A stretch of 64,000 nt of DNA from Selenomonadaceae bacterium (GCA_037189585.1 JBBCJA010000013.1:259067-323066); one strand, 5' to 3'; positions 7,146-63,725 are shown, counted from the stretch's first letter. Notes: a model not told the origin generated them from the letters alone. A program made the numbers and translations.

Positions 7146-7176
7146 AAAGGCCCGATGCGAGAGCACCGGGCCTTTT
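7146..7176. terminator. Bidirectional rho-independent terminator
   Basis: aaaaggcccgatgcgagagcaccgggccttttact: GC stem flanked by A and T runs, between convergent genes. Confidence 0.45.
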
Positions 7177-7195
7177 ACTGACGAGTAAAGTTCGC

Positions 7196-8557: not shown

Positions 8558-8611
8558 GGTGACTTTTTCTCCTAGAGATTGATTGAGCGGAGGATTTCAG
8601 GGCAAGGGTTG

Positions 8612-9996: not shown

Positions 9997-10021
9997 GCCC
10001 TTTGTGGCTTCACTTCCGCAT

Positions 10022-11074
10022 TCACTTCCGCATTGCATACTCTCGGCATCGCTCGAAGTAGCGACCGACCTCTCCGGAGCGCAAAGCTTCGTAGGCTCGC
10101 TGATAGCCGGCGGCCAGGTCGTTCTCGACCTCGGTCAGCCATAGGGCGGCGGCGACATTCATGGCCACGGCACAAGCCAGCTCCTCGCGACCGCCGGCGA
10201 GAAGCTCGCGCGATATCGAGGCGTTGGTCGCCGCGTCGCCGCCTCGTAAAGATTCCAAAGCGATGGGGGAGGTGCCGAACACCGCCGGAGTCCATTCCCA
10301 GTTCCGAACCGGCTGGCCGGCCTCGGCCATGCTGACCCAGCTGATCCCGTTGGGACTCAATTCATCCAGGCCGCCCTCGCCGTGAACAACCAGAACGCGA
10401 CGCAAGCCGAGCCGAATTGCCGCCTGAGCCATCGGCTCCACCAATTCGCGAGCATACACGCCCAGCAGTTGATGGCTCACTCCCGCCGGATTGACCAGCG
10501 GGCCGAGAAGGTTGAAAAGTGTCCGCACCCCCAGGGCGCGTCGTAAGCTCGCCAGCTGTTTCATAGCGGGATGAAAGTGGGGGGCGAAAAGAAAGCCGAA
10601 TCCGCCGGAAGCGATGTGCCTAGCGACCTCCTCGGGGCGATGCCCCAGCGGATAGCCCAGCTCCGCCAACAGATCGGCGCTCCCGCAGGCCGAGGATATG
10701 GAGCGGTTACCGTGCTTGGCTACCCTCACCCCCAAGGAGGCGAGCACCAGGGCGGCCAAAGTCGAGATGTTGATCAGGTGAGCTCCGTCTCCGCCTGTGC
10801 CACAGGTGTCCAGAAGGGTCTCCCCCTCAGCGCCGACTGAAACACTGACCTGGTGCTCCTTTAAGGACTGGGCCGCCCCCACGATCTCATCCACCGTCTC
10901 GCCGCGCACCTTCAGCGCGCTCAGAAGCCCGGCCGCCAGAAGCGATTCGGGAGCGTTTTCCAGATTCGCTCTCATCAAAGCGCTCACCACCGAGCGCATG
11001 GTTTGCTCGGTCAACCTCTCTCCCGAGGTCACCGCGTGAAGCGCCTCTCGCAGTACCTGTTCATCAGCTTTCAT
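10022..11074 (-). CDS. trpD: Anthranilate phosphoribosyltransferase
   Basis: [46 protein letters not shown] is the canonical TrpD signature. Confidence 0.9.
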   Translation of the reverse strand: [350 protein letters not shown]

Positions 11075-11270
11075 ACCAAGCCCGGAAATTATCTCGTGAG
11101 ACCTTGTTTTCCTGGAGGAGGAACGCTTGAAAAACTATCCTGTTGGAACGAAACTTTTATCTGTCTGTATACTTCAAACATCGTATATATCTGGGGTATC
11201 CTCAGGTATATAACGTGCCTCCGGGGTGCTACGTGCCCTCCGGGTACAGTTTTGGAAGGTAGGGTTCTCG

Positions 11271-12557: not shown

Positions 12558-13610
12558 GTGGCCTTTAGCCCTATTTCCGGACCCAATTTTGGCCGCTACG
12601 AAGGCCAGCACATCCAAGCCGTCCCTCGGCAAAAGACCGAGAGTGTCGCGCCTAATTTGCTGCGCGATCTCAAGACTTTCATCGATCTCGATGACGAGCT
12701 TGATGCTGAGGAACTGCTCAGACTTCTCACCCTCGACGAGGTGGAACTCTCGGAAGAAGCTCGTGACATCTTACGCAAAATCAAGAAGAAGAAAAAACGA
12801 GGTCGAGACCGCGAGGCCGAGCAGAGCGAGGAAGAGTTTCTCCAGTTGCTAGCTCAGCTGGATGAGGAGGAGCTAACGCCGCTGAGCGAACTGCCGCGAA
12901 AAGATGTCACGCCCTATCTCCCTCCCGTACTGACCCTATCGACTTATGGACCTTTGGTGGAAGAGAGCCGGCCAGCGCCCATCGCGCCTCGACCTCAGCC
13001 GGCCGAGGACGATATCTCGCAGTTGACCCGGGCGGGGAAGCTGGCTCTGGCTATGGTCGCCATTGCCCCAGATAAAAAGCAGGCGATGAAAGTCGCTCGA
13101 GATCTGGAGGTCTTCGGGGCCGAACTGTTGGGCGAAGTCAAGCGTTTTGGTACCCGTGTGGTTGTGGTTGGAGCCAGGACGGCCTTCACCGATATCGAGA
13201 TCGCCGGGATCCGGCTCTTTGGAGCGGGAGAGAAGACCTTCGACGGGCGCCCTTGGTCGGTGGTCCGCGGTGTCTATTCGGCCAAGCGGCGCATTATCTG
13301 CGTCGGAGAAGAGCTGCTCGACGAGAGCAAGCGCAGCGGACGTTCCACCGTCCGGCACGAATTCGCTCACGCCTACGAGGACACCTGGAGCCGGAAGCGC
13401 CAACGACGACAGCCATTGAGCGTGGAGCTCTGGTACCGTTTCGAAAAGACCCGCAAAAGTTTTGTCTCGGCCTACGCCTCGACCCAGCCGGCGGAGTACT
13501 TCGCTGAATCGGTGGAGGCTTATTTCGCGCCCGGACTGCGCGACACCCTGATGGCCGGAGACCCCGAGATGTTCGCCTATCTTGGTGAGCTTTTCGGCGG
13601 TACTTATTAA
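12558..13610 (+). CDS. ATLF-like / M34-type zincin metallopeptidase with an acidic, lysine-rich and proline-rich N-terminal region
   Basis: HEFAHAY (HExxH) followed about 40 aa later by AEYFAESVEAYF. The third-ligand Glu lies in an E-F-A-E context, as in the anthrax lethal factor / Pro-Pro-endopeptidase family. N-terminal stretch KKKKKRGRDREAEQSEEEF followed by a Pro-rich linker. Confidence 0.55.
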   Translation: MAFSPISGPNFGRYEGQHIQAVPRQKTESVAPNLLRDLKTFIDLDDELDAEELLRLLTLDEVELSEEARDILRKIKKKKKRGRDREAEQSEEEFLQLLAQLDEEELTPLSELPRKDVTPYLPPVLTLSTYGPLVEESRPAPIAPRPQPAEDDISQLTRAGKLALAMVAIAPDKKQAMKVARDLEVFGAELLGEVKRFGTRVVVVGARTAFTDIEIAGIRLFGAGEKTFDGRPWSVVRGVYSAKRRIICVGEELLDESKRSGRSTVRHEFAHAYEDTWSRKRQRRQPLSVELWYRFEKTRKSFVSAYASTQPAEYFAESVEAYFAPGLRDTLMAGDPEMFAYLGELFGGTY

Positions 13611-39495: not shown

Positions 39496-41239
39496 CCGAA
39501 GAGTTCGGTGGGCGCTCGTCGCCGGTCTGCTGTTTTCGTGCTGCTCCTCCGGCTGCGAGTCTCCCGAACCGTTGGCACGAGAGACTCCGCGGCCCGCTCG
39601 ACCCGGCTCGAGGTTACCCCGGACGCAGCCCGAGCCCGCGGTTCCGATTGTCGTTGCGACGGCGACCGCCGACCCAACTCCGACCGTCGTAGGGAATGCG
39701 TCCGTCGTTGCCGCGCCGACTCGGACTTCCGAGCCGCCGGCTCAACCCGACCCGAGTAGTAGCCTACCTCTGACCCTTCCGGGTCCCACCAACGCGACCA
39801 GTTCTGATGACGGGGAACTCAAGACGCTTCTGGCCGAGGCCAGGAGTTCCAAAATGGCGGCACAATGGCGCAAGGCTGGGGAGCGCGCTCTCAAGTTGGA
39901 CCTTTACGGAGAAGCCGCCAAGGCGTTCCGGCAAGAAGCCAGCATCTACCGGTCCAAAGGGATTCTTCAGGCCGCGCTGGCCCAGGAGGCGCGGGCCGAT
40001 CAGTATTCCACCGAATTCGGATTTTACCTTAGCGGGCGCTCTAGCCTTTCCACCCAACGGACCGCCGAGCGTCTAGAGCCGCCCGCGGGATGTCTGGTGG
40101 GCGCGTTCATCGACCGCGACGACAAGGTGCGAAACTTCATGATGGTCTCGCAGACCCACGGCGATGTCGATGAATTCAACGAGTTGACGGGGAAAAAACA
40201 CGCCAGCTTTTTCATGTATCGCTCCTACGGCGAGCCTTTCCCCAAGCAGTGGGCCGAGTATCTGAAGGCCCGCGGCGCCATTGTCCACCTGGCCTGGGAG
40301 CCGCGCGATCTGGCCAGGGTCAAAGACGACGCCTATCTGAAGAGTTTTGTCGACGCGATGGTCGCCTTGGACCACCCTGTCATGTTGCGCTTCGCCAGTG
40401 AGATGAACGGTGAGTGGACTCCTTATCATGGCGACCCCAAGGCTTACAAAGCAGCCTTTCGCTTAGTCCACCGAGCCACGCGGCGGGCCTCTAAAGTTGC
40501 CATGATGTGGTGTCCCAACACCATCCCTCGCCAGGGACTCGAGGATTACTATCCGGGCGACGACGCGGTGGATTGGGTCGGAGTCAACTTTTACAGCGTT
40601 CCTTTTCTCGATAACGATCGCAACCGCCCGGGAGAACTGATCCATCCCACCGATCACTTGAAAACGGTCTACGGTCTCTACTCCTCTCGTAAGCCGATCG
40701 CCATTGGAGAATGGGCGGCCAGCCACCAGTCGAGCGCGACACCGATACCCCTGGTGGATTTCGCCAAGACCAAGATCTCCCAACTGTACGGCTCACTTCC
40801 CACCCGCTTCCCTCGAGTGAAGATGGTCAACTGGTATAGCTCGAACAATCTTCGTCACGCCAGCCCGTCGCGCCAACTCAACAACTACCAGGTGACCGAG
40901 CCGGAGGAACTGCTCGAGCACTACCGCCGGGCCGTTTCCTCCTCTTACTACCTCGGCGCGGAGGGGAACGGTGAAGGGACGGAGCAGGCCTTCCGACCCG
41001 TGTTCGGACGAGTTTCCGCGAGCACTTCCTCGGAATTGCGCATTGCACTGAAAACCTACGAGCAACGCCCCAAAGTCTATTTCCGGGTCAACGACGAGTT
41101 GAAGTTAGCATCGGACGAGCCTTTGGATTGGCGGCTGTCGGCACGAAATTGGAGAGACGGAAAAAATATCGTCGAGGTACTGGTTTACGATCAAAAGAAT
41201 CGGTTCATCACCAGCGAGAAGCTTATACTTGTCCGTTGA
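39464..41239 (+). CDS. Secreted (lipoprotein-like) protein with Pro/Thr-rich linker, helical region and C-terminal GH26-like (mannanase-family) glycoside-hydrolase domain
   Basis: Signal-like RRVRWALVAGLLFSCCSSGC. The C-terminal block WEPRD...MLRFASEMNGEW...YYPGDDAVDWVGVNFY...IAIGEWA resembles the GH26 catalytic Glu contexts. The start (TTG 39464) is uncertain; the upstream part of the long ORF from 39266 looks non-coding. Confidence 0.55.
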   Translation: MDVSSFSSRSSRRVRWALVAGLLFSCCSSGCESPEPLARETPRPARPGSRLPRTQPEPAVPIVVATATADPTPTVVGNASVVAAPTRTSEPPAQPDPSSSLPLTLPGPTNATSSDDGELKTLLAEARSSKMAAQWRKAGERALKLDLYGEAAKAFRQEASIYRSKGILQAALAQEARADQYSTEFGFYLSGRSSLSTQRTAERLEPPAGCLVGAFIDRDDKVRNFMMVSQTHGDVDEFNELTGKKHASFFMYRSYGEPFPKQWAEYLKARGAIVHLAWEPRDLARVKDDAYLKSFVDAMVALDHPVMLRFASEMNGEWTPYHGDPKAYKAAFRLVHRATRRASKVAMMWCPNTIPRQGLEDYYPGDDAVDWVGVNFYSVPFLDNDRNRPGELIHPTDHLKTVYGLYSSRKPIAIGEWAASHQSSATPIPLVDFAKTKISQLYGSLPTRFPRVKMVNWYSSNNLRHASPSRQLNNYQVTEPEELLEHYRRAVSSSYYLGAEGNGEGTEQAFRPVFGRVSASTSSELRIALKTYEQRPKVYFRVNDELKLASDEPLDWRLSARNWRDGKNIVEVLVYDQKNRFITSEKLILVR

Positions 41240-41282
41240 GAATCCCGAGGAGATCGCTCCTTGGAACCAAAAGAGCCTCCTT

Positions 41283-42440
41283 ATGCAGCCACACGATATC
41301 GACCAGACACAGGCCCATTCCACGGCCGAGCTCGAGCAGATCCGTCCGACGGACTTTTCCCTCGTCTGCCGAGCCAGCGGGGAGCGCCGGCGAGTGGTGG
41401 TGCCACGGACTCACCTTTTTATCTCTTCAAAGTCCTATCTGGTGGTTGACGAGCAAGAGGTTCAGCTGCATACCGAACACCCTGACATCGTGACGGTCAA
41501 CGGCGCGGCTTTCAGCGGAGAGCCTTTGCGACCGGGAGACGAGATCGCGGAGAATGGGAGAGCCTTTGTGTTGGAGAGTTCTCCCGTGGTGGCTTTCTTG
41601 GAAGGTCTGACCCCCCCTCACCAGGGGACCTTCTGGCCCTTAGGGGAGGAGAGCGTCACCGTGGGCCGTCCCGGCAAGCGAGACAATACCATCTCTCTTT
41701 TGGACAAGACGGTCAGTCGCGAACAAGCGACCCTGACATACCAGCAGGGACGATTCGTGCTGATACCCGAGGCCGCTAGCAGCACCAGTACGGTGAACGG
41801 CCGCCCGGTGGAGCAGAAGATGGTTCTGCGCAACGGAGACCTTCTGGCCTTCGGACAACAGATTGTGCGCTTCCAGAGCAATCACGATACCTTCGGTGCG
41901 GGTCAAGGGACGATTTTCTTTTGCGACGTGTGGGACTACTCCAATCTCTTCCACGGCCGGGCCGTGCACGAGGTCGCGCAGCTGATGAGGGAGTTTTACG
42001 AGGCCGCCGGGGAGGTGGTCGAAGGGAACGGAGGACTGGTCCTTCGTTACATCGGGGATGCCCTTTTGGCTGCTTTCTCCGAGGATGGACACGCGGACTC
42101 CGCGGTGGCGGCGGGCTTGGCGCTGCAGGCTCGGCTGGCCGAGCTCAACGCGGACTGGGCGACGCGCGGCATGCCGGTGTTGCAAGTGGGAGTCGGGATC
42201 AACTCGGGTGAATTCGCGGTCGGCCATATGGGCTTCGCTGGCTACATCGAGTTCGGAGCACTTGGGCCTGATGTGAATATGGCGGCTCGGATCGAGAAAC
42301 TGACCCGAGATCACGATTCGAAAGTTCTCTTGGGAGAGTCGACGGCGACTCTCTTGACCCGGGACTACCCCCTGCACTCGCTAGGCAGGCTAAACCTCAA
42401 GGGAGCTCAGGAAGAGATCGAAGTCTTCGCTGTGGTCTAG
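41283..42440 (+). CDS. FHA-domain (x2) class-III adenylate cyclase
   Basis: Canonical FHA VTVGRPGKRDNTISLLDKTVSREQATL...NGRPV. A divergent FHA-like segment lies upstream. The cyclase domain has metal Asp residues in FFCDVWDYS and YIGDALLAAF, and GPDVNMAARIE suggests adenylyl specificity. Confidence 0.8.
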   Translation: MQPHDIDQTQAHSTAELEQIRPTDFSLVCRASGERRRVVVPRTHLFISSKSYLVVDEQEVQLHTEHPDIVTVNGAAFSGEPLRPGDEIAENGRAFVLESSPVVAFLEGLTPPHQGTFWPLGEESVTVGRPGKRDNTISLLDKTVSREQATLTYQQGRFVLIPEAASSTSTVNGRPVEQKMVLRNGDLLAFGQQIVRFQSNHDTFGAGQGTIFFCDVWDYSNLFHGRAVHEVAQLMREFYEAAGEVVEGNGGLVLRYIGDALLAAFSEDGHADSAVAAGLALQARLAELNADWATRGMPVLQVGVGINSGEFAVGHMGFAGYIEFGALGPDVNMAARIEKLTRDHDSKVLLGESTATLLTRDYPLHSLGRLNLKGAQEEIEVFAVV

Positions 42441-44386
42441 GCTAGAGTCGCCCCTCCGAACAGCCGGAGCGCCTCGGTGGGGAGAATCTGCCCCTGGGCG
42501 ACCAGGACCTTGGCGAAGCTCTTGAACGAGAACAGTAGCCCGTGGGAGATGGCAGCCTTGCGGACGGCCTCGGGGCTACGTCCGGCGCGCATCATTTCGG
42601 CCAGGAACGGATTGAGTTTGAGCGACTCGAAAACCGCGACCTTGCCGGAAACCCCGCTTCCTCGACAACTGTCGCAGCCGGCTCCATGGAAGAAGCGGTC
42701 GTCGCGCGAGCCCAGGCCGGAGAGCTCCAGTTGAGAAACGACGGCGGGTGAAGGGCTATACGCCTGACGGCAGTGCGAACAGACTCGGCGCAGTAGCTGC
42801 TGGCCCAGAACCAGGCTGAGATTCTCCACGGTGGAGGCGGGTGCGTCCGGGCGACCCAGCAGCCCGGACAGTGCCGAGATGGGGTCGGTTCCACGCGTGG
42901 TGGTCAGCACGGTCAGTCCGTCCTCGGCGGCCTCTAAAACAGAGTTGAGACTCTCGCAGCCAGGTTCGTCGACCATCAAAACATCAGGTTTTTGCTCCAG
43001 AGCCACCCGCAAGGCCGAGGTGAGGTTCTGTCGCTCGCATTGACCCAGCAGGTCCCCTGGAAGTCGAACTTGGGCTATCTGATCCAGGGTTAGGAGAGGC
43101 TTTGTTTCTAAAGTCAAAGCGTTGACCCGTCCCGTCTCCTGGTCAAGGAGTCGAAGCAGACTATAGAGTGTCGTGCTACGTCCGGAGTGAGAGGAGCCGA
43201 CCACCAGCACGGCGCCCCCCTCGCCACGGATGGCAGCTTCGATCGTCTGTTTGAGAACGTCGACGGGCCACAGAGCGGAGGGCGAAGGGACAGCTTCTCG
43301 CGGGTCGGTGACGCCGACGGCATAACGCGCGCCGCGCAGGGTTTGCAAACGGGACAGGTGGACCTCGCATCGCTGCCCGTCGATCACGACCACTCGGGTC
43401 CGCACCTCGTTGGCCTCGGTGTCGGCCCCAAAGAGCGCCTTCAGCTGTTGCCCGAGCGCATTCTTTTGAGTCGAGTCAAGCTGGCAGTCGAGCGGTTCGA
43501 GTCGTCCTGACGAGCCGGCCGCGAAGAGGGCGACGCCATTGGGTGTCGGCTCCACGATCACCCTTCCCTGGTCACCAGCGTAGGCATGGGCCAGCAGAGT
43601 GTCAAAGGGAGCTCTCACCGGTTCCCCGCCTTCCAGAGTGATGCTCCTTGGAGGAGTGGCCGCGACGCTTGTCGAGGAAGGGGCTACGGTGGGAAGAAAC
43701 CGTTGAGCGAAGTCGGCGAAATCCTCCGCCGTACAGGCCATGGGGTTGATGCTCAGCCCCGGCGCCTGGCGACGCAGGGCGGCAAGTGTTGCCGTGTCGT
43801 GGGGGCGGGTCATGGCTACGGTGACCACGCCGGCTTCGAGACGCAGCGGAATGGCCTTGAGGGTTCGCAACAAGTTGGGAGTGAAAGTTTCGATGAGATC
43901 GGGCTGATTGATGATCTCTTCGGCGCGGGCGAAGTGAAATCCCATGCCGCCGAGCTGCTGGGCCAGACGAGTGGCCAAGTATCGGCTGATCTCGACAGCC
44001 ACCTGAGGCAGCTTCTCCAGGACCGAATCAAAAGAGGCCTTGGCCAGAACAAGGCAGGTTGTCGGCTCGAGGGCGCGCACCGTCGCCGCCCGGGGAGCCT
44101 CGGTCAGAAGTGACATCTCCCCGAAGGATTCCGGGCTGCGCCTCTCCGAGAGGACCTGTTCAACCCCCAGACTCGGCTCCTCTCGCACTACCACCACCGA
44201 GCCTTCGACTAAAATGAACAGTTCCGACCCTGGGTCGCCCTGGCGGACGATGACGGCGTCGGTCTCGAAAGCCATGGCTCGGGTGACTTTGGCTACCGCC
44301 TCGAGCAAGGGTGGAGAGAGTCTTGAGAAGAGGTCCGTCTGGGATAGGAGAGCAACGGCGGCTTGTTGGTCGAACATGGTGGGCAT
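42437..44386 (-). CDS. GspE/PilB-family secretion-ATPase homologue with N-terminal cyclic-nucleotide-binding domain and degenerate catalytic motifs (putative pseudo-ATPase)
   Basis: The cNMP domain (LFSRLSPP...FGEMSLL...RAATVRALEPTTCLVL) is followed by a T2SSE_N-like region and an ATPase core. Walker A is GSSHSGRSTTLYSLL versus the consensus GPTGSGKSTTLY (Lys to Arg). The Asp box is TLETKP versus TIEDP. The His box is GLTVLTTTRGT versus GHLVLSTLHTN, with both His lost. The tetracysteine CSHC...CDSC is retained. Start at M60 (44386, RBS GGGAAG) avoids overlap with the divergent TerB gene. Confidence 0.75.
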   Translation of the reverse strand: MPTMFDQQAAVALLSQTDLFSRLSPPLLEAVAKVTRAMAFETDAVIVRQGDPGSELFILVEGSVVVVREEPSLGVEQVLSERRSPESFGEMSLLTEAPRAATVRALEPTTCLVLAKASFDSVLEKLPQVAVEISRYLATRLAQQLGGMGFHFARAEEIINQPDLIETFTPNLLRTLKAIPLRLEAGVVTVAMTRPHDTATLAALRRQAPGLSINPMACTAEDFADFAQRFLPTVAPSSTSVAATPPRSITLEGGEPVRAPFDTLLAHAYAGDQGRVIVEPTPNGVALFAAGSSGRLEPLDCQLDSTQKNALGQQLKALFGADTEANEVRTRVVVIDGQRCEVHLSRLQTLRGARYAVGVTDPREAVPSPSALWPVDVLKQTIEAAIRGEGGAVLVVGSSHSGRSTTLYSLLRLLDQETGRVNALTLETKPLLTLDQIAQVRLPGDLLGQCERQNLTSALRVALEQKPDVLMVDEPGCESLNSVLEAAEDGLTVLTTTRGTDPISALSGLLGRPDAPASTVENLSLVLGQQLLRRVCSHCRQAYSPSPAVVSQLELSGLGSRDDRFFHGAGCDSCRGSGVSGKVAVFESLKLNPFLAEMMRAGRSPEAVRKAAISHGLLFSFKSFAKVLVAQGQILPTEALRLFGGATLA

Positions 44387-44459
44387 GGATACTTCCCGCG
44401 AAGGAAAGCGACCTTCCGCCAGGAGAATACCGTGGGTCGGAAAATCGTGCCCGGTGAGC

Positions 44460-45023
44460 ATGCAGAATCCATTTCGCGACGCCATGGTCTCTATTTCCAT
44501 TGCCGCCGCTTGGGCCGACGGGGGAGTGGAGGACTTCGAGAAGCAATCGCTGGACAGAATCATGGTGAGCCTGGGCTACAGTCGGGGCGAGATCATGACT
44601 CGCATCAGTCAGGCCTTGGAAGGACCGGACCTCGATCCCATCGAGCTTCCAGTCGAACCAAGTCTGTGCGTCCAGACGATGCGTTACGCTCTGGCGGTGA
44701 CCTTGTCCGACGGGGCTCTCTCGGCCGCGGAAGTGAACTTTTTGGCCAAGCTCGCTGAACATCTGGGACTTGACGCCAAAACTTTGGAGACGCTGCGAGC
44801 CGAGGCGGAGGGGATGGTGTCGGAGCGTCGCGCCGAGGGGCTCGTCAAACCGATCGAAAGATTGGAGTCTCTGCCCCCGGAAGCCAGAGTCAAGCTGGCC
44901 GACGCCGAGCTTGACCAGAAACCCTCCCCCAGGCATGGACCTGGCGAAGCTGTTGCTGGAGGAATCCTGGAGCCCAAAGTCCTCTACGAGGGTGAGGGCT
45001 TCGGTGGCCAGTTGGAGCTGTAG
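44460..45023 (+). CDS. TerB-like (tellurite-resistance TerB / DjlA N-terminal fold) domain protein
   Basis: ISIAAAWADGGVEDFEKQSLDRIMVSLGY and a second repeat, LAVTLSDGALSAAEVNFLAKLAEHLGL. GGTGAG RBS. Confidence 0.55.
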   Translation: MQNPFRDAMVSISIAAAWADGGVEDFEKQSLDRIMVSLGYSRGEIMTRISQALEGPDLDPIELPVEPSLCVQTMRYALAVTLSDGALSAAEVNFLAKLAEHLGLDAKTLETLRAEAEGMVSERRAEGLVKPIERLESLPPEARVKLADAELDQKPSPRHGPGEAVAGGILEPKVLYEGEGFGGQLEL

Positions 45024-45025
45024 GA

Positions 45026-46363
45026 TTGAAGCCCGGGGTGGGGAGCCAGAGGTGTCTGCTCGGGTTGGGCTTGGCCGGCTGGTTGTTTTCTGCGGGCTCT
45101 TCCCTGGCCCAAGAGCAGGCTCCAGTGGTGCGAGCGGAGTTTGTCGTCGATCCTGGAAATACCGAAGTTTGGCGCTCCTCCGGGGAGGGAGTGAGCAACT
45201 ATGTCGGCCCGGCCAACAAGATGCTGTCTTTAGACCTCGACGCGGCGGAAATGGCCGGAAATCGCGATATCGTGGTGGAGTTCAAAGTGCCTCTCTGGTT
45301 CTCCACCTGGACCAGTCCCGCCGAGTATGTCTCTCCCGGCCGCTTACGCGAAACCCGTCGATTCCCGGAGCGTGATGTCCATCGCCTGGAGCTCGGCGGC
45401 TGGCGGCGTTTCCAAGCCTGGACACTGGCCCATCCGAGCCTGGCGCTAGGCGCCCCGGCGGGGCTCTTCGTCACCCTGGTGGCGGGCTGGCTATGGAGAC
45501 GTCGACCTCGACCGAAGCCCCATGGAGAATTGACCGATGGATATTCATTGAGAGAAAGGCTCGGCGCGGGAGCGATGGGTGAGGTTTTCGCCGCGACCGA
45601 TTCCGATGGGATGGAGTGCGCGTTGAAGTTTCTCCGCTCCGAGCTGACCGCGAATCCGAGGGCGGCCGAGAGGTTCAACCGAGAGATCGCCGCCAGCGTC
45701 TCTTTAAGCCATCCCAACTTGCTGAAGGTGTTCGGCTACGGATTCGCCCGTGACGGACGGCTCTACCTATCCACCGAGCTTTTGAAGGGCCGAACTCTTA
45801 AGGAGGAGCTCAAGAAAAATGATCGCTCGCCGGAGCTGGCTCTCGACGTGGTCGAGGAGGTCGGAGCGGCTCTAGCTTATCTGCAGGGACGCGGAGTGGT
45901 CCATCGCGACGTCAAGCCCGAGAATATCTTTGTTCGGGAGAGCGGCGGACTGGTGTTGATGGACCTTGGAATCGCGCAGACCGCGAACACGGAGTCGATC
46001 ACCGTCGCGGGTCAGGCCATGGGCTCTCCGCTTTACATGGCACCCGAGCAGGTTCAGGGGAAACCCGGTCCGGCTACCGACCAGTACGCTTTGGGTCTTG
46101 TTCTGTACGAGATTTTGACCGGACGACGTCCCTTCCGGGCCACCGACGTGGCCGCCCTGGTCCATCAGCATATCCATGAAACTCCGCCCCCGCCGCGCCA
46201 AATCGAACCGCGTATTCCCGAGGTCGTGGAGAGGGCTCTACTGCGCATGTTGACCAAGCGCCCAGAGGAGCGCTTCGCCTCCGTGGAGGAGGCGCGCCGG
46301 GCGGTGTCCGAGGGACTGGCGGGCCAGCGCTGGCGAAGATCTAGAGAGACTCGGACATTTTGA
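45026..46363 (+). CDS. Receptor-type Ser/Thr protein kinase (signal peptide, ectodomain, TM, Hanks kinase)
   Basis: GAMGEVFAA...ALK (subdomains I and II), HRDVKPENIF, DLGIA and APE motifs. A single TM segment (LFVTLVAGWLW) precedes the kinase. Confidence 0.85.
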   Translation: MKPGVGSQRCLLGLGLAGWLFSAGSSLAQEQAPVVRAEFVVDPGNTEVWRSSGEGVSNYVGPANKMLSLDLDAAEMAGNRDIVVEFKVPLWFSTWTSPAEYVSPGRLRETRRFPERDVHRLELGGWRRFQAWTLAHPSLALGAPAGLFVTLVAGWLWRRRPRPKPHGELTDGYSLRERLGAGAMGEVFAATDSDGMECALKFLRSELTANPRAAERFNREIAASVSLSHPNLLKVFGYGFARDGRLYLSTELLKGRTLKEELKKNDRSPELALDVVEEVGAALAYLQGRGVVHRDVKPENIFVRESGGLVLMDLGIAQTANTESITVAGQAMGSPLYMAPEQVQGKPGPATDQYALGLVLYEILTGRRPFRATDVAALVHQHIHETPPPPRQIEPRIPEVVERALLRMLTKRPEERFASVEEARRAVSEGLAGQRWRRSRETRTF

Positions 46364-48044
46364 GGATCGGCAGCAGGCACCCGATGGAGAAAAAGCCGAC
46401 GCAGATTCCCAGGAAGGCCATGAAAAGGGGCTCGACCAGACTCATCAGCGCTTCTATGCGATATTCGAGTTCGGCGTCGACGATACGCGCCACACTCTCC
46501 ATCATCCCCGTCACGTCGCCGCTCTGTTGACCCGCCTCGACAGCTTCGATCACCAGCGGCGGCAGTATGTCTCCAACTTCTAGCGACTCGCGCAGGGTAC
46601 TGCCGTCGATCAGGGCCTGTTTCATTCTGGGTCCGGCCAGTGTGGCCTTGCGTGAGCCTGTGGCCTCGGCGGCCATGAGAAAACACTGGGGAGCGGTCAG
46701 CCCGACATCATAGGTCATGATGAAGATTCTTAGGAAACGAAGCGAGACCGCGGTCTGGATCAGGTTTCCGACACCCGGTAGCGCCCAGGCCATCGGCTCC
46801 AGATTCACCAACCTTTCACGGACTTTTCCGCTACGGAGCCCCAGGAATCCGAGGACCGTCAGAGACGCCGCAGTGATGAGGAAGGCCGGAGAAGAGAGGG
46901 AACGCGAGAACCAGAGAATCCCCTTGGTGATAGCCGGGGGGTCGCCACTGAGCTCCACAACCTGGGTCAAGACGTCGGCCAAAACGAAAGGCGGGAGTAG
47001 AACCACCGCCAGAAGTGTGAGCGAGGCGATGGTGAGCGGATAGAAGAGATGACTCTGCAAGGTTTGGCGCAGCTTCCATCGATGCTCCTCGTCAGCCGCC
47101 AAACGGTGAAGAACGGCCACCAGCTTACCCGAACGCATGCCGATCTCGACCAGCTTGACCGCGATCTCGCTAAAAAGAGCGGGCTCTTTGTAGGCTGCCC
47201 GGTGAAGCGGCTGACCCGCTAATAGGTCTTGAGAAATACGTCGACAGGCTTCAGCTTGTTCGGGACTTTCCGACTCTCGAGCGAGAAAGTCGAAGACTCC
47301 GAACATAGGCAGGCCAGCCCCCAGCATGGTGGTGAGGGAGCGGTAGAAGGTCACTCGTTGGCGCTGGAGGTTGCCGGACCAGGATTGGATCAAAGATCGC
47401 CGAGGCACCGAGGTGGCGACGGATTCGACCGCCACGGGAGATTTTTTGACCGGCGGGGGCGATGGAGGAGTGGGGGGAGGTTTTAAGGGAGGTTTTGAGG
47501 CGTCGAGCTCCGGAGCCGTGACGGAGGGTGAGGGTGCCTCTAGCTTGGCTACCCAGGCGGGAACCGGTGGATCGTCGAGACTTTCCGGCTTAGCCCAGGC
47601 GGGTCGTTCGGGAGCTGAGGGCGCTGGAGGTGTCTTCTCGATGGGTTTCGGGCCTGGCGGCTTGGCCAATTTGAGCTCCACCGGAGGGAGGGCCGGGGGT
47701 TGTTTCGCAGCTTTCTCGACGGCTTCAGCGTGGGAAAGCATCTCAGGAAGCCCGACTTCTCCGGTGGGCGATTCCTCTTTCTTGGGGCGACTTCGTTGCC
47801 AGGCCCGCATCATTTCATCGCTACTGACTTCAAATGTCTCCGAGGTCTCACGGGCGACCCAGCCACCGCTGGAGGTAAAGTGGTCCGACCCGGCTGGACG
47901 GCTCAGGGGCTGCGAGTCCGATGTGATCAATCCGGAAAGCCAACCTGTATAAGTCGACTCCGTGTCCATCTCTGGACCTGGAGTGGCCAAGACGTCATCG
48001 CCCCACTGCACCGGCTTGGGTTCAGCAGACTTATCTTCGGCCAT
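46341..48044 (-). CDS. GspF/PilC-like inner-membrane platform protein (two T2SSF repeats) with an approximately 320-aa proline-rich N-terminal extension
   Basis: Two T2SSF-domain repeats (RVTFYRSLTTMLGAGLP...; ...GPRMKQALIDGSTLRESL...) with 3 TM segments. N-terminal low-complexity PPxP-rich region. Start placed at MAEDKS (48044); the first about 97 codons of the long ORF look non-coding. Confidence 0.7.
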   Translation of the reverse strand: MAEDKSAEPKPVQWGDDVLATPGPEMDTESTYTGWLSGLITSDSQPLSRPAGSDHFTSSGGWVARETSETFEVSSDEMMRAWQRSRPKKEESPTGEVGLPEMLSHAEAVEKAAKQPPALPPVELKLAKPPGPKPIEKTPPAPSAPERPAWAKPESLDDPPVPAWVAKLEAPSPSVTAPELDASKPPLKPPPTPPSPPPVKKSPVAVESVATSVPRRSLIQSWSGNLQRQRVTFYRSLTTMLGAGLPMFGVFDFLARESESPEQAEACRRISQDLLAGQPLHRAAYKEPALFSEIAVKLVEIGMRSGKLVAVLHRLAADEEHRWKLRQTLQSHLFYPLTIASLTLLAVVLLPPFVLADVLTQVVELSGDPPAITKGILWFSRSLSSPAFLITAASLTVLGFLGLRSGKVRERLVNLEPMAWALPGVGNLIQTAVSLRFLRIFIMTYDVGLTAPQCFLMAAEATGSRKATLAGPRMKQALIDGSTLRESLEVGDILPPLVIEAVEAGQQSGDVTGMMESVARIVDAELEYRIEALMSLVEPLFMAFLGICVGFFSIGCLLPILKMSESL

Positions 48045-48297
48045 TTCCCACTCGAGTCGACATAAAATTGGAGCTATCTTAGCAGCTTTGCTCGGCCTGC
48101 GAAATTGGCCTTGGAGCTTGAGAAAGTCTCGTTCCACGCCGAAGCGAGGAGATCGGAAAATAATCGGAAAAACTTCGATTACATTGTTCACTGACCTCCT
48201 GTGTCGAAAGGTCGCCGCGGACTGTTTTAGACAGTGTATGGACGACCAGGTGCGAGGAAATTTGATCAAAAATTTAACGTTAACCCGAGGTCGTCCG

Positions 48298-49818
48298 TTA
48301 GTTGGGAATGATGACGCCGCAGGTCGCGTCGTCAAGATCCCCTATGTCGGCTAGCGCGGTTTCGATGGCTTGAGCCGCTTCGGTGATTGAGGGGAATCGT
48401 GTTTCCGGCCTTTTGGCCATCAGACGTTGAACCACCACTTCTAGCAGTGGACTGGCATCGGGCACCTCGTGAAAGATAGACGGGACGGGGGCGGTCAGGT
48501 GTTGGGTTATGACCTCGATGGGGTCGCCCTCGGGATAGGGGCGGTCCCCGGTCAGCATCTCGAAAAGGATCACTCCCACGGCGTATTGATCGCTTTCGGG
48601 ACGAACCTCTCCCTTGGCCTGTTCCGGCGCCATGTAGTGAGGGCTTCCCACAGCCATTCCGGTTCGAGTGATGGCTTCGAACTCTAGACCTCGAGCGATC
48701 CCGAGATCGACGAGTTTGACTCCAGTGCGGTCCAAAAAGATGTTCGATGGCTTGACGTCGCGATGAACCATACCCTTTTTATGGATGTAAGCTAGAGCTT
48801 TGCACAAGGGAAGCAAAATGTTCGCGATCTTCTCTCTGGGCGGTTGAATATCGTCGTCGAGCTCCTCCGAGAGGGTACGACCTTCCAACAACTCCATCAC
48901 CAGGTAGGTCTCGCCGTCGGGACCCACGCCGGTATCATACATCCTGACGAGGTTAGGATGGTTTAGCTTGGAGCAGATCTCGATCTCTCGAAGGAATCGT
49001 TTCTTGGTGTCACGGTCTTCCAGCAGTTCGGGACGCACGACTTTGATGGCCACCTCTCGACCAGGCGCCTTGGGCGAGGTGCCGCGGTAGATGATCGCCA
49101 TTCCCCCCTCGGCGATCTTCTCTTTTATGACGTAAGGCGGCCCGGTCGGCGGGATGGGGTCTGCTCGGCCGGAAGTCGTTTGGGGCAACCGGGTCGAGGG
49201 CGGCGTCTGCTGCTGGCGACCTCGTCGCCCGAGGATAAATCCACCGGCGCCCACCCCCAGAACCAGAAGGGCGAGCCCCGGAGCAAGCCACGATCCGGAT
49301 CCGACAGGCTCAAGCCTGTAGGTCCCCTGGCTAGGAAGGCGCCGACTGCCTCGGAGTTCAGGCGCGGTGAGTGAGATAACTTTAGGCACGTAGCCGTCGG
49401 CGCTAAGGGTGAATTCAAAAGACTTGTCTCCCGAAGCGGGAAGCTCGAGAGCTAGCGGTTGAGCGGCGCTCTGCTCCACCACTCCGTCGACCTTGACGAT
49501 CGCGTTGGGAGGATCGACATGGACTTTCACTATGACCTGCTCGGCATCGCCGGGCAGTCTCATCAGAGCAAAGACAATAGCGGTAAGCATCCATGGCGCG
49601 CGCACGCGGCCTACTTTGCTTTTTTCGACCTGGCTCCTGGAATCAAACGGATACAGTGGTGGAAACGACCGACTCCTACCCCAGCAGAGAATCCAGGGCA
49701 TTCCGAAAGTCGTTTGAGTAGAGGGGTCCCACCGCGTTCCCTCTTTCGGCCCGCCGCGAAGCGCTTTGGAAGGTCGAGGTGCGGTCCGGGGAGGAGGAGG
49801 AGGTGTTGCCAAGTCCAC
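48298..49818 (-). CDS. Receptor-type Ser/Thr protein kinase with PEGA-like ectodomain
   Basis: Kinase motifs GGMAIIYRG...AIK, HRDVKPSNIF, DLGIARG and SPHYMAPE. An ectodomain VIVKVHVDPPNAIVKVDGV...GYVPKV (PEGA-like) is followed by one TM segment. A second ORF in another frame (49676..50083) overlaps the 5' end, so a frameshift or alternative N-terminus is possible. Confidence 0.8.
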   Translation of the reverse strand: MDLATPPPPPRTAPRPSKALRGGPKEGTRWDPSTQTTFGMPWILCWGRSRSFPPLYPFDSRSQVEKSKVGRVRAPWMLTAIVFALMRLPGDAEQVIVKVHVDPPNAIVKVDGVVEQSAAQPLALELPASGDKSFEFTLSADGYVPKVISLTAPELRGSRRLPSQGTYRLEPVGSGSWLAPGLALLVLGVGAGGFILGRRGRQQQTPPSTRLPQTTSGRADPIPPTGPPYVIKEKIAEGGMAIIYRGTSPKAPGREVAIKVVRPELLEDRDTKKRFLREIEICSKLNHPNLVRMYDTGVGPDGETYLVMELLEGRTLSEELDDDIQPPREKIANILLPLCKALAYIHKKGMVHRDVKPSNIFLDRTGVKLVDLGIARGLEFEAITRTGMAVGSPHYMAPEQAKGEVRPESDQYAVGVILFEMLTGDRPYPEGDPIEVITQHLTAPVPSIFHEVPDASPLLEVVVQRLMAKRPETRFPSITEAAQAIETALADIGDLDDATCGVIIPN

Positions 49819-52094: not shown

Positions 52095-53471
52095 CTATAG
52101 ACCCATTGAAGCGCGATAGTAGAGCTTCATCAACTCCGGGTCGGGATCGAGGTCGTCGGACTTGAGCGCTTTGACGGTCGCTTCGTAGACTTCCACCGCG
52201 CGTTCCGGCTTGGCCATTTTCAGGTAGGCCTCCATTAAAAGGCCGGCCGCATCCTCGTTGGTGGGGTCCACTTCCAGCAGTTTTCGTCCGGAACTCTCCA
52301 CTGCTTCGAATTCGTTGTGTTCCAGCATCGTCCGACCCGAAGCCAGCACCGTTTCGGTGAAACAGATCTCGAGTTTGGACCGGGCCACGTCGGCCCAGTC
52401 TTCATAACAGGTTCGCAGAAACGGACCACGATAGAGATCGAGCAGCCTTCGTAGGGCCGCGGCCGAGGTGAGAGGTTTGCGAGGTTCGGTCATTTTCATG
52501 ACCTCGGTGTAGTCATGTTGGCCGAGGCGTTCGGGATTGAGTTGCAGGGTCGAGGGTGTCCGCAGTACCAGGGATTCGAAGGCCGCGTCGTCGAGAGCCA
52601 GGGAATCGCGCAGCTGGAGCAGAGTGTAGCTGAGATTTTTTCGGCCACGGGTTGCCGCGACCCCGGGCCAGAACTCCTCCAACAAGGACTCCACGGCCAG
52701 AGGTTCGCCCCACTGCAAAGCCAGTCGAGCCAGCAGCCAGCGACTCTTCTCGTTACGAACGTCTTGCCCCAGATTAGCGTCGCCACCTAAGGAGACCCAA
52801 AAGGTGCCCAAGGTCCTAATAGAGATGAGCGACTCGGTGCTAGAGGCTTCAGCGGGGACGGAGAAACGGAAGAAAAGTTGGCCGACTCCGATCAGATCGC
52901 CATGGTGAAGCCGCTTGGTGGCTCCGGGCGCCAGCGCCTCCCCGTTGACCGTGGTGGCACTACCGGCCGACTCGCTCATCAACGAAACCTGGCCGTGACG
53001 ATCGGGCAGAAAGGTCGCATGGGCTCGAGATATGGTCGGATGCTCGAGCTCGATATGGTTGAGTCGCTTGCCCCGACGACCCAACAGAGTCTGTTGACCC
53101 TTAAGGTGCCAAACCCGACCGGTGAAAGGAGCGTCAACCCCCTCCAGCGTTCCCACCGGAGGCTGACGTACGTCCAGCAGCCAGATGTTCGCTCCGTCGA
53201 GAATCGCGCTCTCTCCCACGTGCAGCGGACGGCTTTCGCCGTTCTCGCTGTTGAAAAGGACCACGCTGTCGCCTTTGAGTCTGGCAGACCATGTCGAGCC
53301 CGCGGGAAAAGCCGTGGCCGCTTCCTTGGCGAAGCTGATCTCCTCGGAGATGAAAGGGAAACGGTACTCCCGCTGACCGTCGAGAACCAGCTGCAGTTCG
53401 AGATGTGGATGGGCCAGAGTGACCGACTGGGCCAACACGTTCTGAGTGGGATCGCTAGACTGTTCCGTCAT
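52095..53471 (-). CDS. FHA-domain plus SARP/BTAD (OmpR-like wHTH with bacterial transcriptional activation domain) regulator, a reverse EmbR architecture
   Basis: N-terminal FHA (TLLGRRGKRLNHIELEHPTISRAHATF...NGEAL). C-terminal winged helix (LGTFWVSLGGDANLG...RWLLARLAL) and BTAD helices (LDLYRGPFL...EAYLKMAKPERAVEVYE). Confidence 0.7.
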   Translation of the reverse strand: MTEQSSDPTQNVLAQSVTLAHPHLELQLVLDGQREYRFPFISEEISFAKEAATAFPAGSTWSARLKGDSVVLFNSENGESRPLHVGESAILDGANIWLLDVRQPPVGTLEGVDAPFTGRVWHLKGQQTLLGRRGKRLNHIELEHPTISRAHATFLPDRHGQVSLMSESAGSATTVNGEALAPGATKRLHHGDLIGVGQLFFRFSVPAEASSTESLISIRTLGTFWVSLGGDANLGQDVRNEKSRWLLARLALQWGEPLAVESLLEEFWPGVAATRGRKNLSYTLLQLRDSLALDDAAFESLVLRTPSTLQLNPERLGQHDYTEVMKMTEPRKPLTSAAALRRLLDLYRGPFLRTCYEDWADVARSKLEICFTETVLASGRTMLEHNEFEAVESSGRKLLEVDPTNEDAAGLLMEAYLKMAKPERAVEVYEATVKALKSDDLDPDPELMKLYYRASMGL

Positions 53472-62024: not shown

Positions 62025-62446
62025 GTCAAGAACTCCTAGCCCCGGCGCGAGTCTTCGTGTTTGGGCAGCCAGTCGACATGCGCAAGAGCTTCGATGGATT
62101 GTACTGCATAGTCCGATACAAGCTCGAGGAAGAGCCCACTAGCGGTGACTTATTCCTGTTTCTGAACCGCCGACGAAATTACGTCAAGGGTTTGCTATGG
62201 GACCGCACAGGCTTCGTGATTATCGCAAAGCGTCTCGAGAACGGTCAGTTCAAGCTGCGAAACAAGGCCTCCAAAATCGTCATCTCGCGAGAATGTCTGA
62301 GAAAATTTCTAGACGGGATTTCTGTGGGAGGAGTTGAGATCGTGGGATCAAACCCTTTAAGCAGTGGACATGCAGACGCAGCTACAGAGGATGTCGAAGG
62401 CCGAACTGGTCTCCTTCGTCCTCCAGCAGCAAGCGGCCCAAGCTGA
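62021..62446 (+). CDS. IS66 Orf2 (TnpB-like) protein
   Basis: VFVFGQPVDMRKSFDGLYCIV...NRRRNYVKGLLWDRTGFVIIAKRLENGQFK is the IS66 Orf2 signature. Confidence 0.7.
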   Translation: MSQELLAPARVFVFGQPVDMRKSFDGLYCIVRYKLEEEPTSGDLFLFLNRRRNYVKGLLWDRTGFVIIAKRLENGQFKLRNKASKIVISRECLRKFLDGISVGGVEIVGSNPLSSGHADAATEDVEGRTGLLRPPAASGPS

Positions 62447-63725
62447 GGTTGAGCGGAAACAGTCCGACACCATCGCAAGTCTTGAGCGCCACATCAAGTG
62501 GCTATCCAACATCGCCCTGGGTTCAAGATCCGAGCGGCGAGTTCTTGACCATCTCGATGCCGAAGGCCAGCTTCTCCTTAGTGGGATGATGCTCGAGCTG
62601 CCGAAGGAGGTTCCCCCGGCTGACACTACCGTTGTTGACCTAGACAAGAAGGGCCGCAAGAAGAAGACCAAGGTCGACGACAAGACGACAGGTGGCATTC
62701 GTTTCAAAGACAACGTGCCCGTCATCGAGGTCAAGGTTGAGAATCCGCTGCTCGCCGGCGCTGACCCCGCAAAGCTCACCGTTATCGAGACCCGCCACAG
62801 CGACCGAATCGTGGCTCTACCGCCCTTCGCTGTCTTGAGAATGGTCCTTGAGACAACCAAGAACAAAGTTACGGGCGAGATCAGCCGGCCCAAGGTTCCC
62901 TCCGGCATCTGGGATCAGTGCTGCGCTGACGTGAGCTTCCTGGCCAAGCTCGTGGTGGACAAGTATCAGTTTCACCAGCCGCTCTACCGTCAGCATCAAG
63001 AGCTTCAGCAGAAAGGTGTTGAGATCCACCGCGGGACAATTTCGCGTTACATCCATCGTGCTGCTGAGCTGCTTGACCCAATCTACGGAAGTCTCTTGAG
63101 CTCGATTCTGAAGTCCAAGGTCATCTCGATGGACGAGACGCCGGTCAAGGCTGGGCATCAGGACGGGAAGACCGACAAGACGAAGAAGGCTTTCTACTGG
63201 CCCATCTACGGTGACCAAGATGAGATCTATTTCCTGTTCTCGCCGACGAGGTCGGGCAAGGTCGTCAAGGATGTGCTGGGCGCCTTTCAGGGCACGCTGC
63301 TTTCCGACGGCTACGATGCCTACGAGACCTTCGCCAACAAGGTGGAAGGGGTTACCTGGGCAGCCTGCTGGGCTCACGTGCGCCGCAAATTCATCGAAGC
63401 CGAGAATCACGAGCCCGACAAGGTGAAGAAGCTGCTTGTCTGGATGCAGACGCTATACAAGGTCGAGAAAAACGCCGGTGATGATCGCAAGCTTCGAGAA
63501 AGGCTTCGGTCGGAGGTCTCGACCGAAGTCGTCGATGAGATATTCACTTATCTAAACCAAGTCTACGCCGAATCGCGTCTACCTCAGACCAGTCCGTTCA
63601 TCATCGCTATAAATTACGCTTTGGAACGCACAGACGGCCTGCGCGTCTTTCTGAGCGACCCCGCCGTTCCTATCGACAACAATCACGTTTATGCCGCGCG
63701 CGGCATAATCCGGGAGTCGGCATAA
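62364..63725 (+). CDS. IS66-family transposase TnpC (C-terminally truncated)
   Basis: Leucine-zipper N-terminus, zinc-finger and DDE region (HQPLYRQHQELQQKGVEIHRGTISRYI...AACWAHVRRKF). The C-terminus is lost after DNN. Confidence 0.75.
   Translation: MDMQTQLQRMSKAELVSFVLQQQAAQAEVERKQSDTIASLERHIKWLSNIALGSRSERRVLDHLDAEGQLLLSGMMLELPKEVPPADTTVVDLDKKGRKKKTKVDDKTTGGIRFKDNVPVIEVKVENPLLAGADPAKLTVIETRHSDRIVALPPFAVLRMVLETTKNKVTGEISRPKVPSGIWDQCCADVSFLAKLVVDKYQFHQPLYRQHQELQQKGVEIHRGTISRYIHRAAELLDPIYGSLLSSILKSKVISMDETPVKAGHQDGKTDKTKKAFYWPIYGDQDEIYFLFSPTRSGKVVKDVLGAFQGTLLSDGYDAYETFANKVEGVTWAACWAHVRRKFIEAENHEPDKVKKLLVWMQTLYKVEKNAGDDRKLRERLRSEVSTEVVDEIFTYLNQVYAESRLPQTSPFIIAINYALERTDGLRVFLSDPAVPIDNNHVYAARGIIRESA

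Follow-up and report, generated by a model that had tools for sequence, protein, structure and literature searches.

A PilB/GspE-like protein with an N-terminal cyclic-nucleotide-binding domain and degenerate catalytic motifs in a Selenomonadaceae bacterium

Introduction

The motor proteins PilB and GspE belong to the PilT-like ATPases, in which the two Walker motifs (A and B), the catalytic Glu, a pair of arginine fingers and the Glu of the Asp box are completely conserved (McCallum et al. 2017, PMC5424180). In the same work R271 and R286 are given as the arginine fingers of Geobacter PilB, and the His-box residue H420 contacts the gamma-phosphate (PMC5424180). Signalling by PilB that depends on its nucleotide state has precedents (PMC5544727; PMC11656802), and binding of a second messenger at the N-terminus is reported to be coupled to the ATPase domain (PMC6957770). 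Cyclic AMP (cAMP) is treated in a 2024 review of PilB regulation as acting only via the transcription factor Vfr (PMC11656802). Here, we analyze a gene on the minus strand (positions 42437–44386) of a 64,000-nucleotide stretch of Selenomonadaceae bacterium DNA (GCA_037189585.1, JBBCJA010000013.1:259067-323066), which as a whole is called the window in the following. Its predicted product combines a domain of the type that binds cyclic mononucleotides (cNMPs) with a PilB/GspE-like ATPase region carrying degenerate catalytic motifs. The protein is probably a cyclic-nucleotide receptor on a PilB/GspE motor scaffold, deficient in hydrolysis and acting as a cNMP-gated scaffold or switch. Literature searches yielded nothing specific on PilB/GspE fusions with a cNMP domain or on a pseudo-ATPase of the PilT family.

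Results and Discussion

Gene and Domain Layout

The longest open reading frame (ORF) on the minus strand at this place spans positions 42437–44563 and corresponds to 708 amino acids. The start shared by all homologues is the Met encoded at 44386 (alignment A1), which results in a protein of 649 amino acids; the ATG lies at 44384–44386 and is preceded on its 5' side by GGGAAG. The public protein P0001 has the same length of 649 amino acids and is 100% identical. An earlier note on this DNA, made from the sequence by a model, had proposed the same reading frame with an N-terminal cNMP domain and an assignment to the GspE family, all of which was confirmed by the Pfam matches, the homologue starts and P0001. 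The matches are given here in the numbering of the 649-residue protein. cNMP_binding (PF00027) covers residues 39–124 with 69.5 bits (cutoff 27.5), MshEN (PF05157) residues 161–232 with 39.8 bits over profile positions 14–85, and T2SSE (PF00437) residues 333–618 with 100.6 bits (cutoff 24.9), where ordinary members score several hundred bits. The NCBIfam equivalogs for GspE (TIGR02533, 107 versus 630) and PilB (TIGR02538, 103 versus 676) were not reached. Thus, the domain matches together with the low equivalog scores place the protein clearly within the PilB/GspE fold, though at a strong divergence from its other members.

An AlphaFold2 model based on 73 sequences had a mean predicted local distance difference test (pLDDT) value of 87, with 93–94 in the P-loop. 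The best Foldseek matches of the model were PilF, PilB and GspE/EpsE (5OIU, 5TSH, 1P9W; E ~1e-28), with a template modeling (TM) score (TMt) of ~0.8 over the N2D and C-terminal (CTD) domains to Thermus thermophilus PilF, Geobacter PilB and Vibrio cholerae EpsE. Profile searches, model, structure comparison, the public protein and the substitution rates given below jointly define a protein with the order cNMP-binding domain, C-terminal half of MshEN, N2D and T2SSE-CTD that is a degenerate relative of PilB/GspE.

Catalytic Motifs

The register of the catalytic motifs was checked in three ways, by a phmmer comparison with the solved Thermus PilF, by a MAFFT alignment with 11 canonical GspE, MshE and PilB sequences and by an hmmalign alignment of 160 sequences; the motif coordinates, all on the minus strand, were confirmed by translation. 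In the phmmer alignment the segment lvvGSSHSGRSttl of the window protein is paired with litGPTGSGKSftt of PilF. All three alignments place Arg403 (CGT, 43178–43180) of the Walker A motif GSSHSGRST (43172–43198; canonical GPTGSGK[ST]T) in the column of the catalytic Lys, and no Lys occupies that position. The Gly residues and the Ser/Thr of the P-loop are kept. The Lys-to-Arg exchange postulated in the earlier note was therefore upheld by formal alignment. Its second claim for this motif, a Gly-to-His exchange in the P-loop, is correct for the window sequence and does not hold for the family, in which the position varies between His, Arg and Gly. Misregistration of Walker A was ruled out by the three alignments and by the pLDDT of the modeled P-loop. 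A sequencing error at codon 403 was also ruled out, since CGT is three changes away from AAR and all orthologues share the Arg.

The other deviations that had been listed were confirmed and partly extended. The Asp box reads TLETKP (43097–43114; canonical T[IV]EDP[IV]). The Mg-coordinating Glu427 is kept and is invariant in alignment A1, and the following Asp, which is missing from most members, is replaced by Thr. In the Walker B region DVLMVDEP (42962–42985; canonical D[IV][IL]MVGE[IMT]RD) the catalytic Glu474 is kept and the Arg of the canonical GEIRD is missing as proposed. Additionally, the Asp that follows this Arg is lost and the Gly is changed to Asp473, which provides a classical hhhhDE Walker B in place of the Gly form typical of the family; both D473 and E474 are invariant in A1. 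The His box GLTVLTTTRGT (42887–42919; canonical GHLVLSTLHTN) has lost both His residues, with Leu491 and Arg498 in their columns. The loss of both arginine fingers in the N2D domain (43232–43624) had escaped the earlier list. There, the canonical RxPQDGR...D[FV]R is represented by EANEVRTRVVVIDGQRCEVH, and the two finger columns contain Thr330 and a His. The first finger is missing from 8/8 homologues and the second from all but P0008. Overall, four of the family-invariant elements defined by McCallum et al. (PMC5424180) are missing from the window protein.

The Zn-binding tetracysteine (42665–42781; CSHC at 42770–42781 and CDSC at 42665–42676) is kept. C536, C539, C571 and C574 are invariant in all 22 sequences of the degenerate clade described below (alignment A5), so that the earlier statement of a retained Zn site and a retained fold was borne out by alignment and model alike. 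In the order of its N1E-like, N2D and CTD domains, the PF00437 match, the Foldseek similarity, the Zn tetracysteine and the Asp-box and catalytic Glu residues, the protein agrees with PilB and GspE (PulE, EpsE, PilF). It differs from them in the Arg at the Walker A Lys position, the missing arginine fingers and His-box His residues, the Gly-to-Asp exchange and the lost Arg-Asp in Walker B, the additional cNMP domain and the location of its gene outside clusters for pili or secretion. Mutants with a Lys-to-Arg exchange in Walker A, for instance RecA K72R, are known to bind ATP without hydrolysing it. The invariance of the P-loop, the Asp-box Glu and the Walker B Asp-Glu in those relatives that share the Arg (Arg subclade) suggests that nucleotide binding was retained there, and the active site looks remodelled rather than simply dead.

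cNMP Domain and MshEN Half

The cyclic-nucleotide-binding domain comprises residues 8–145 (43952–44365, minus strand), as judged from PF00027 and the phosphate-binding cassette. The cassette FGEMSLLTEAPRAATVR is located at 44075–44125 on the minus strand, as checked by translation, and the cassette sequence FGEMSLLTEAPRAATV of the window protein is canonical (G-E...R-[AST]). Compared with the regulatory subunit RI-alpha of PKA, the domain gave a phmmer E value of ~1e-16, and its PRAATV is of the PKA RI-alpha type.

Between this sensor and N2D only the C-terminal beta-rich half of an MshEN/GSPII_E_N-like domain is present (43691–43906, minus strand), as seen from the PF05157 match and a comparison with the MshE N-terminus. 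The 24-residue cyclic di-GMP (c-di-GMP) motifs RLGxx(L/I/V)(L/I/V)xxG were not found in any family member by a regular-expression search and by comparison with MshE. P0116 and P0041, used as canonical comparators, clearly possess them, and the N-terminus of the Shewanella MshE P0056 shows RLGDLLV. With both the motifs and the helical half missing, the cNMP domain takes the place of the c-di-GMP-binding helices of MshE. MshE and other c-di-GMP-binding PilB proteins thus share with the window protein a second-messenger module at the N-terminus, followed by the beta-rich MshEN half, and an analogous regulatory logic. In contrast to MshE, which is a working ATPase, the window protein lacks the helical c-di-GMP half and carries a CAP/PKA-type cNMP domain instead.

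Conservation and Selection in the Degenerate Clade

Compared with its 89% identical orthologue at locus L005, the gene has a ratio of nonsynonymous to synonymous substitution rates (dN/dS) of 0.12 over the whole length and 0.17 in the ATPase domain. No variation in SGRST, E427 and D473-E474 was seen among 8 homologues with identities down to 37% (A1). The earlier note had suggested asking whether orthologues conserve the Lys-to-Arg exchange, and they do over this whole range. Their codons for Arg403 differ (CGT, CGC, CGG, CGA and AGG, the last being one step from Lys). Five different Arg codons mean that the Arg was held through synonymous turnover. Judged by these alignments, the Lys-to-Arg change is ancient and under selection.

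The window protein belongs to a degenerate clade of ~23 clusters. The Walker A Lys is present in 4 of these; 12 have Arg in its place, 6 have Val or Leu and 1 has Ala. Erosion also affects the Walker B Glu and the His box, to differing degrees across the clade, and the cassette G-E...R-[AST]-x-T is retained in every member. When the ATPase region was used for a neighbour-joining tree with midpoint rooting, the degenerate forms occupied basal branches apart from the block of canonical fusions. Catalytic erosion of varied kinds, together with a ligand site and a fold that stay fixed, is the expected pattern for a pseudoenzyme kept as a receptor. The named members are assigned to Candidatus Eremiobacteraeota, Vulcanimicrobiota and Candidatus Xenobia, with one from Armatimonadota. 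One contig (L047) contains two degenerate paralogues (5657–7561 and 10001–11905) which are 33% identical and carry Leu and Arg, respectively, at the Walker A position. These paralogues flank a regulator of the CRP type (cNMP_binding and HTH_Crp_2) at 8531–9247, and at locus L004 an HTH_Crp_2 gene stands beside the TerB-like gene introduced below.

Public databases label P0003, P0005, P0008, P0155, P0162, P0352, P0355 and P0356 as 'type IV pilus assembly protein PilB', 'Flp pilus assembly complex ATPase component TadA' or 'ATPase, T2SS/T4P/T4SS family'. Applied to proteins of the degenerate clade, such labels overstate what the sequences support. If the catalytic losses are what they appear to be, an annotation as PilB or TadA would wrongly credit Eremiobacterota metagenome-assembled genomes (MAGs) with a pilus motor.

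Distribution of the Fusion

The fusion of a cNMP domain to a GspE-family ATPase had been regarded as unusual in the earlier note. This view could not be maintained. A family profile was scored against 1.84 billion representatives and the best 150 clusters at 50% identity were examined. In 112 of these 150 the alignment extended over the cNMP region as well as the ATPase domain, so that at least 112 clusters possess the architecture, and in 73 of the 112 all six marker residues are canonical (Lys, Glu-Asp, Glu, His, His). P0165 from Myxococcales, P0312 and P0313 are examples of fusions in which the catalytic motifs and the cassette are both intact. Outside the degenerate clade, these canonical cNMP_binding-MshEN-T2SSE fusions, to which P0210 also belongs, are closest in sequence, with the same architecture, a length of ~630–670 amino acids, the cassette and the Zn finger. 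They differ by keeping PQDGR, GSGK[ST]T, EDP[IV]E, VGExRDET and HLVLS[ST]LHTN, and no TerB-like neighbour was found in the three of their loci examined. A subgroup of fusions of ~890–910 amino acids (P0186, P0198, P0207, P0211 and P0314) has an extra N-terminal region of ~260 residues. This subgroup shows the reciprocal situation, that is canonical ATPase motifs and a degenerate cassette with His, Ser or Asn for the phosphate-binding Arg.

A locus scan with five sequences detected two full-length relatives, from Candidatus Xenobia and Vulcanimicrobiota, and 35 further loci with partial matches. Of these partial matches 34 were by the cNMP domain only, mostly in Myxococcota. The two of the partial loci that were looked at encode unrelated cyclic-nucleotide-binding (CNB) proteins.

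Conserved Partner and Neighbouring Genes

A gene for a TerB-like protein of 187 amino acids is located at 44460–45023 on the plus strand, divergent from the cNMP-GspE-like gene and separated from it by a gap of 73 bp. It was identified by Pfam (TerB/DUF533) and by profile matches to solved structures. The PF05099 match of 31.4 bits (cutoff 24.4) was scored on the extended 327-residue ORF 44040–45023, which contains the gene, and the profile matches to the TerB structures 2JXU and 2OU3 are weak. The protein contains two aDGxxxxxE repeats, of which AAAWADGxVxDxEK and LxDGxLSxxEVNFL are conserved (alignment A3). Its C-terminal tail LLYEGEGFGGxLEL, which follows a variable linker, is strongly conserved as well and looks like a docking peptide.

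Such a divergent TerB-like gene (~135–190 amino acids) is found beside the degenerate gene in 10/10 loci, including that of P0157, a member with a Lys-to-Val exchange. Six loci have a gap of 72–98 bp between the two genes and L047 one of 214 bp; in the P0157 loci a gene of 166 amino acids intervenes. No TerB-like neighbour was present in the canonical-fusion loci (0/3). The earlier note had pointed to an immediately adjacent adenylate cyclase. The invariant genomic partner of the degenerate gene is the TerB-like gene and not the cyclase. In the intergenic regions of the window (44387–44459) and of L001, L003, L005 and L047 a loosely conserved GGCGAAGTA stands a few bases upstream of the cNMP-GspE-like start. 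No CRP-type palindrome was seen in these five regions.

The cyclase itself, an FHA domain joined to a class III nucleotidyl cyclase (Pfam FHA and Guanylate_cyc), is encoded at 41229–42440 on the plus strand; its start is probably a little downstream of 41229. Its stop codon TAG occupies 42438–42440 and the stop of the GspE-like gene is the reverse complement of 42437–42439, which confirms the convergent arrangement with the 4-bp overlap of stops described earlier. The designation 'adenylate' remained unproven. The closest solved structure is bPAC; both metal-binding Asp residues and the transition-state Asn and Arg are retained, and at the substrate-specifying positions of bPAC the exchanges K197R, D265E and T267G are found. 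The loci at which an FHA-cyclase adjoins the GspE-like gene are limited to the window, L005 (89% identity) and L003/L008 (53%; Candidatus Xenobia, GCA_037968995.1). A CHASE2-type cyclase takes the same convergent position in L047 and lies 5 kb away in L004. Altogether, a class III cyclase of either architecture is encoded within 6 kb in 5/10 loci of the degenerate clade (window 41229–42440, L005 11942–13102, L003 4856–6028, L047 11968–13737, L004 10131–11909). No cyclase was found within 10 kb in L001, L002, L009 and the P0003 contig, and the P0157 contigs (L049/L050), which are short, contained none.

Directly downstream of the TerB-like gene follows a Ser/Thr protein kinase gene (45026–46363, plus strand; Pkinase, 143 bits), which is syntenic in L005 and L003. 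Next to it, an orphan GspF/PilC-like platform protein is encoded on the minus strand (46341–48335). It possesses two T2SSF domains (PF00482, 133.7 bits; TIGR02120, 173 versus 424) and a long Pro-rich N-terminal extension; its start is uncertain, with the L005 counterpart called at 540 amino acids. This gene, ~2 kb from the cNMP-GspE-like gene in the window, is present only in the window, L005 and L003 and was not found within 10 kb in L001, L002, L004, L009 and L047; it is possibly a lineage-specific partner. A second Ser/Thr protein kinase gene (48298–49818, minus strand; Pkinase, 156.7 bits) lies upstream of the GspF-like gene and is syntenic in L005. A protein with an FHA domain and a bacterial transcriptional activator domain (BTAD) is encoded at 52095–53471, again syntenic in L005. 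With the FHA-cyclase, the two kinases and the FHA-BTAD protein, the region is rich in parts for phospho-Thr signalling. Genes for pilins, a secretin, GspL/M, PilMNO or an alignment complex were not found in the 64-kb window, which contains only the orphan GspF-like gene of this kind. Two of the three canonical-fusion loci are situated near other T2SSE, T2SSF or prepilin-like genes.

Proposed Function

The earlier note had concluded on a likely cAMP-regulated pseudo-ATPase. A cNMP-regulated pseudo-ATPase is still the best reading of the sequence, because the register, the Lys-to-Arg change, the fold, the pattern of losses, the cassette and the conservation in orthologues all hold; cAMP is not singled out and the active site is remodelled. 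In this proposal the protein would bind a cNMP at its intact phosphate-binding cassette. A nucleotide, probably Mg-ATP, would still be bound as a structural or allosteric ligand, since the Arg subclade has preserved the P-loop, Glu427 and Asp473-Glu474, and hydrolysis would be nil or extremely slow. With negligible hydrolysis the rotary cycle that turns the PilC/GspF platform could not be powered. Binding of the cNMP is expected to move the C-terminal helices of the sensor (residues ~116–144), which run directly into the N1E-like domain, and this movement may change the oligomeric state or the binding of partners. The output would consist in a protein-protein interaction, with the TerB-like protein as the candidate partner in every locus and the orphan GspF-like platform protein perhaps as a further one in the lineage of the window. 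The local input is probably the FHA-cyclase, which could plausibly be controlled by the two neighbouring Ser/Thr kinases via phospho-Thr recognition. The protein would have originated from the large family of catalytically intact cNMP-fused PilB/GspE-like ATPases.

Two described cases resemble this proposal. Myxococcus xanthus PilB, in its control of exopolysaccharide, signals via its nucleotide-bound state and not via pilus assembly (PMC5544727); it differs in being a fully active motor with a second job, whereas the window protein appears to have given up motor function. Degenerate signalling enzymes of the FimX type likewise keep a fold for ligand binding or scaffolding and preserve a regulatory site after catalytic loss, but with another fold and another messenger.

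Several observations speak against this proposal or limit it. Regarding the identity of the cNMP, the residue after the cassette Arg is Ala in the window protein and Ser or Thr in most relatives, and because of these Ser/Thr residues the cassette singles out neither cAMP nor cyclic GMP (cGMP) nor another cNMP. All five nearby class III cyclases, of the FHA and the CHASE2 type, carry Arg at the position of bPAC K197, and an Arg at this substrate-specifying Lys position leaves more than one nucleotide possible as the substrate. In the Arg subclade the second His-box position is basic (Arg or Lys), and P-loop, catalytic Glu and Mg-binding Glu are retained; some hydrolysis, residual or stimulated by a partner, may therefore occur. 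The neighbour-joining tree is crude, and long-branch attraction could inflate the monophyly of the degenerate forms; all sequences derive from MAGs or metagenomes. Finally, the links to the TerB-like protein, the GspF-like protein and the kinases are drawn from gene neighbourhood only, and the TerB-like gene is divergent and not co-transcribed.

We tentatively put forward a broader idea that is possible, though we would sooner doubt than assert it. The degenerate clade and its always-adjacent TerB-like partner might form an unrecognised second-messenger receptor module, in which a PilB-type ring, locked in a nucleotide-bound, non-turning state and without connection to a machine for pili or secretion, serves purely as a scaffold gated by a cNMP. 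In the background there might be many intact PilB/GspE-like ATPases, a large family not yet studied, whose gating by a cyclic mononucleotide is direct. Direct gating by a cNMP, if true, would be a mode of motor control beyond current reviews, in which cAMP acts on pili via transcription only. The wider group of PilB/GspE-like proteins with a cNMP sensor would then place cAMP or cGMP beside c-di-GMP as direct post-translational regulators of type IV filament motors. If the main proposal above is correct, the degenerate clade would be the first natural pseudo-ATPase lineage within the PilT-like motor family as far as our searches went, and would indicate that a PilB/GspE ring can stay under strong selection for roles other than turning a platform.

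Alternative Explanations

The retained parts of the active site could also belong to a rebuilt and still working atypical ATPase, in which Arg403 replaces the Lys, Asp473 serves the Mg, Arg498 stands in for the His-box His and a cNMP switches a slow motor. The invariance of SGRST, E427 and D473-E474 in the Arg subclade, the basic residue at the second His-box position in most of its members, the purifying selection on the ATPase domain and the GspF-like platform gene 2 kb away would all fit. Such an enzyme would have to manage without the family-invariant arginine fingers, of which the first is gone in all 8 homologues and the second in all but P0008, and we know of no natural P-loop NTPase that hydrolyses efficiently with Arg at the Walker A Lys position. 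Sister lineages with Val, Leu or Ala for the Lys and without the catalytic Glu keep the rest of the protein, which means that the scaffold is maintained without catalysis, and the window is devoid of pilin, secretin and alignment-complex genes. We therefore regard a working motor, the main rival, as unlikely. Quite unlikely, too, is a dominant-negative brake that would depend on a cNMP, occupy the PilC/GspF platform of a real machine for type IV pili or type II secretion whose genes lie elsewhere, and so block the real motor. This would be a specific version of the scaffold idea. The PilB-like fold with its Zn finger, the synteny of the GspF-like gene in three Xenobia-type loci and the T2SSE, T2SSF or prepilin-like genes near canonical relatives point in its direction, but the GspF-like gene is missing within 10 kb from L001, L002, L004, L009 and L047. 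Moreover, the conserved partner is TerB-like, and to our knowledge TerB-like proteins have no role in pili; a brake is not strongly supported.

A different question is whether a cNMP is the ligand at all. CRP/FNR-type domains are known to bind other ligands and the cyclase is not conserved beside the gene in half of the loci, so that the N-terminal domain might sense something else or be structural, with the cyclase nearby by coincidence. That the cassette FGE...PR[AST]AT is of the PKA RI-alpha type (E ~1e-16) and invariant across the degenerate clade, that cyclases of two unrelated architectures recur nearby, and that CRP-type regulators occur in L047 and L004, makes this improbable. Cyclase and CNB protein also invite comparison with a Pycsar-like anti-phage pair, in which the cyclase would make a cNMP on infection and the CNB protein would be the effector. 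PADLOC matched the two proteins to PycTIR (63 bits, CNB part only) and PycC (55 bits), and the substrate-specifying residues of the cyclase are non-canonical. However, these matches are at the domain level and do not surpass the ones to PKA RI-alpha and Pfam Guanylate_cyc, the genes are convergent and form no operon, and the putative effector is T2SSE-like without a TIR or transmembrane killing domain. The locus is furthermore syntenic with housekeeping genes (PFK, SOD, GT4) at an identity of only 53%, the sensor domains of the cyclases are of the FHA or CHASE2 type and, again, a TerB-like protein is the conserved partner. An anti-phage pair is thus very improbable, and a defence system was rejected as the primary reading on account of the purely domain-level matches. 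Hardly credible at all is a decaying relic or incipient pseudogene of a PilB/GspE gene. The multiple catalytic-site losses and the low T2SSE score (100 bits) could be taken in this sense, but the ORF is intact with a dN/dS of 0.12, orthologues keep invariant blocks down to 37% identity and paralogues are maintained in L047. A relic is effectively refuted by the selection data.

Other Genes of the Window

The rest of the window encodes mostly housekeeping functions, among them RecA, MetH and cytochrome oxidase. A protein with two PilZ domains, a potential c-di-GMP receptor, is encoded within the housekeeping stretch at 8579–9394. The ORF at 12558–13610 gave a weak match (30 bits) to the anthrax lethal factor N/C-terminal domain family (ATLF), and a transposase of the IS66 family is located near the right end (62364–63725).

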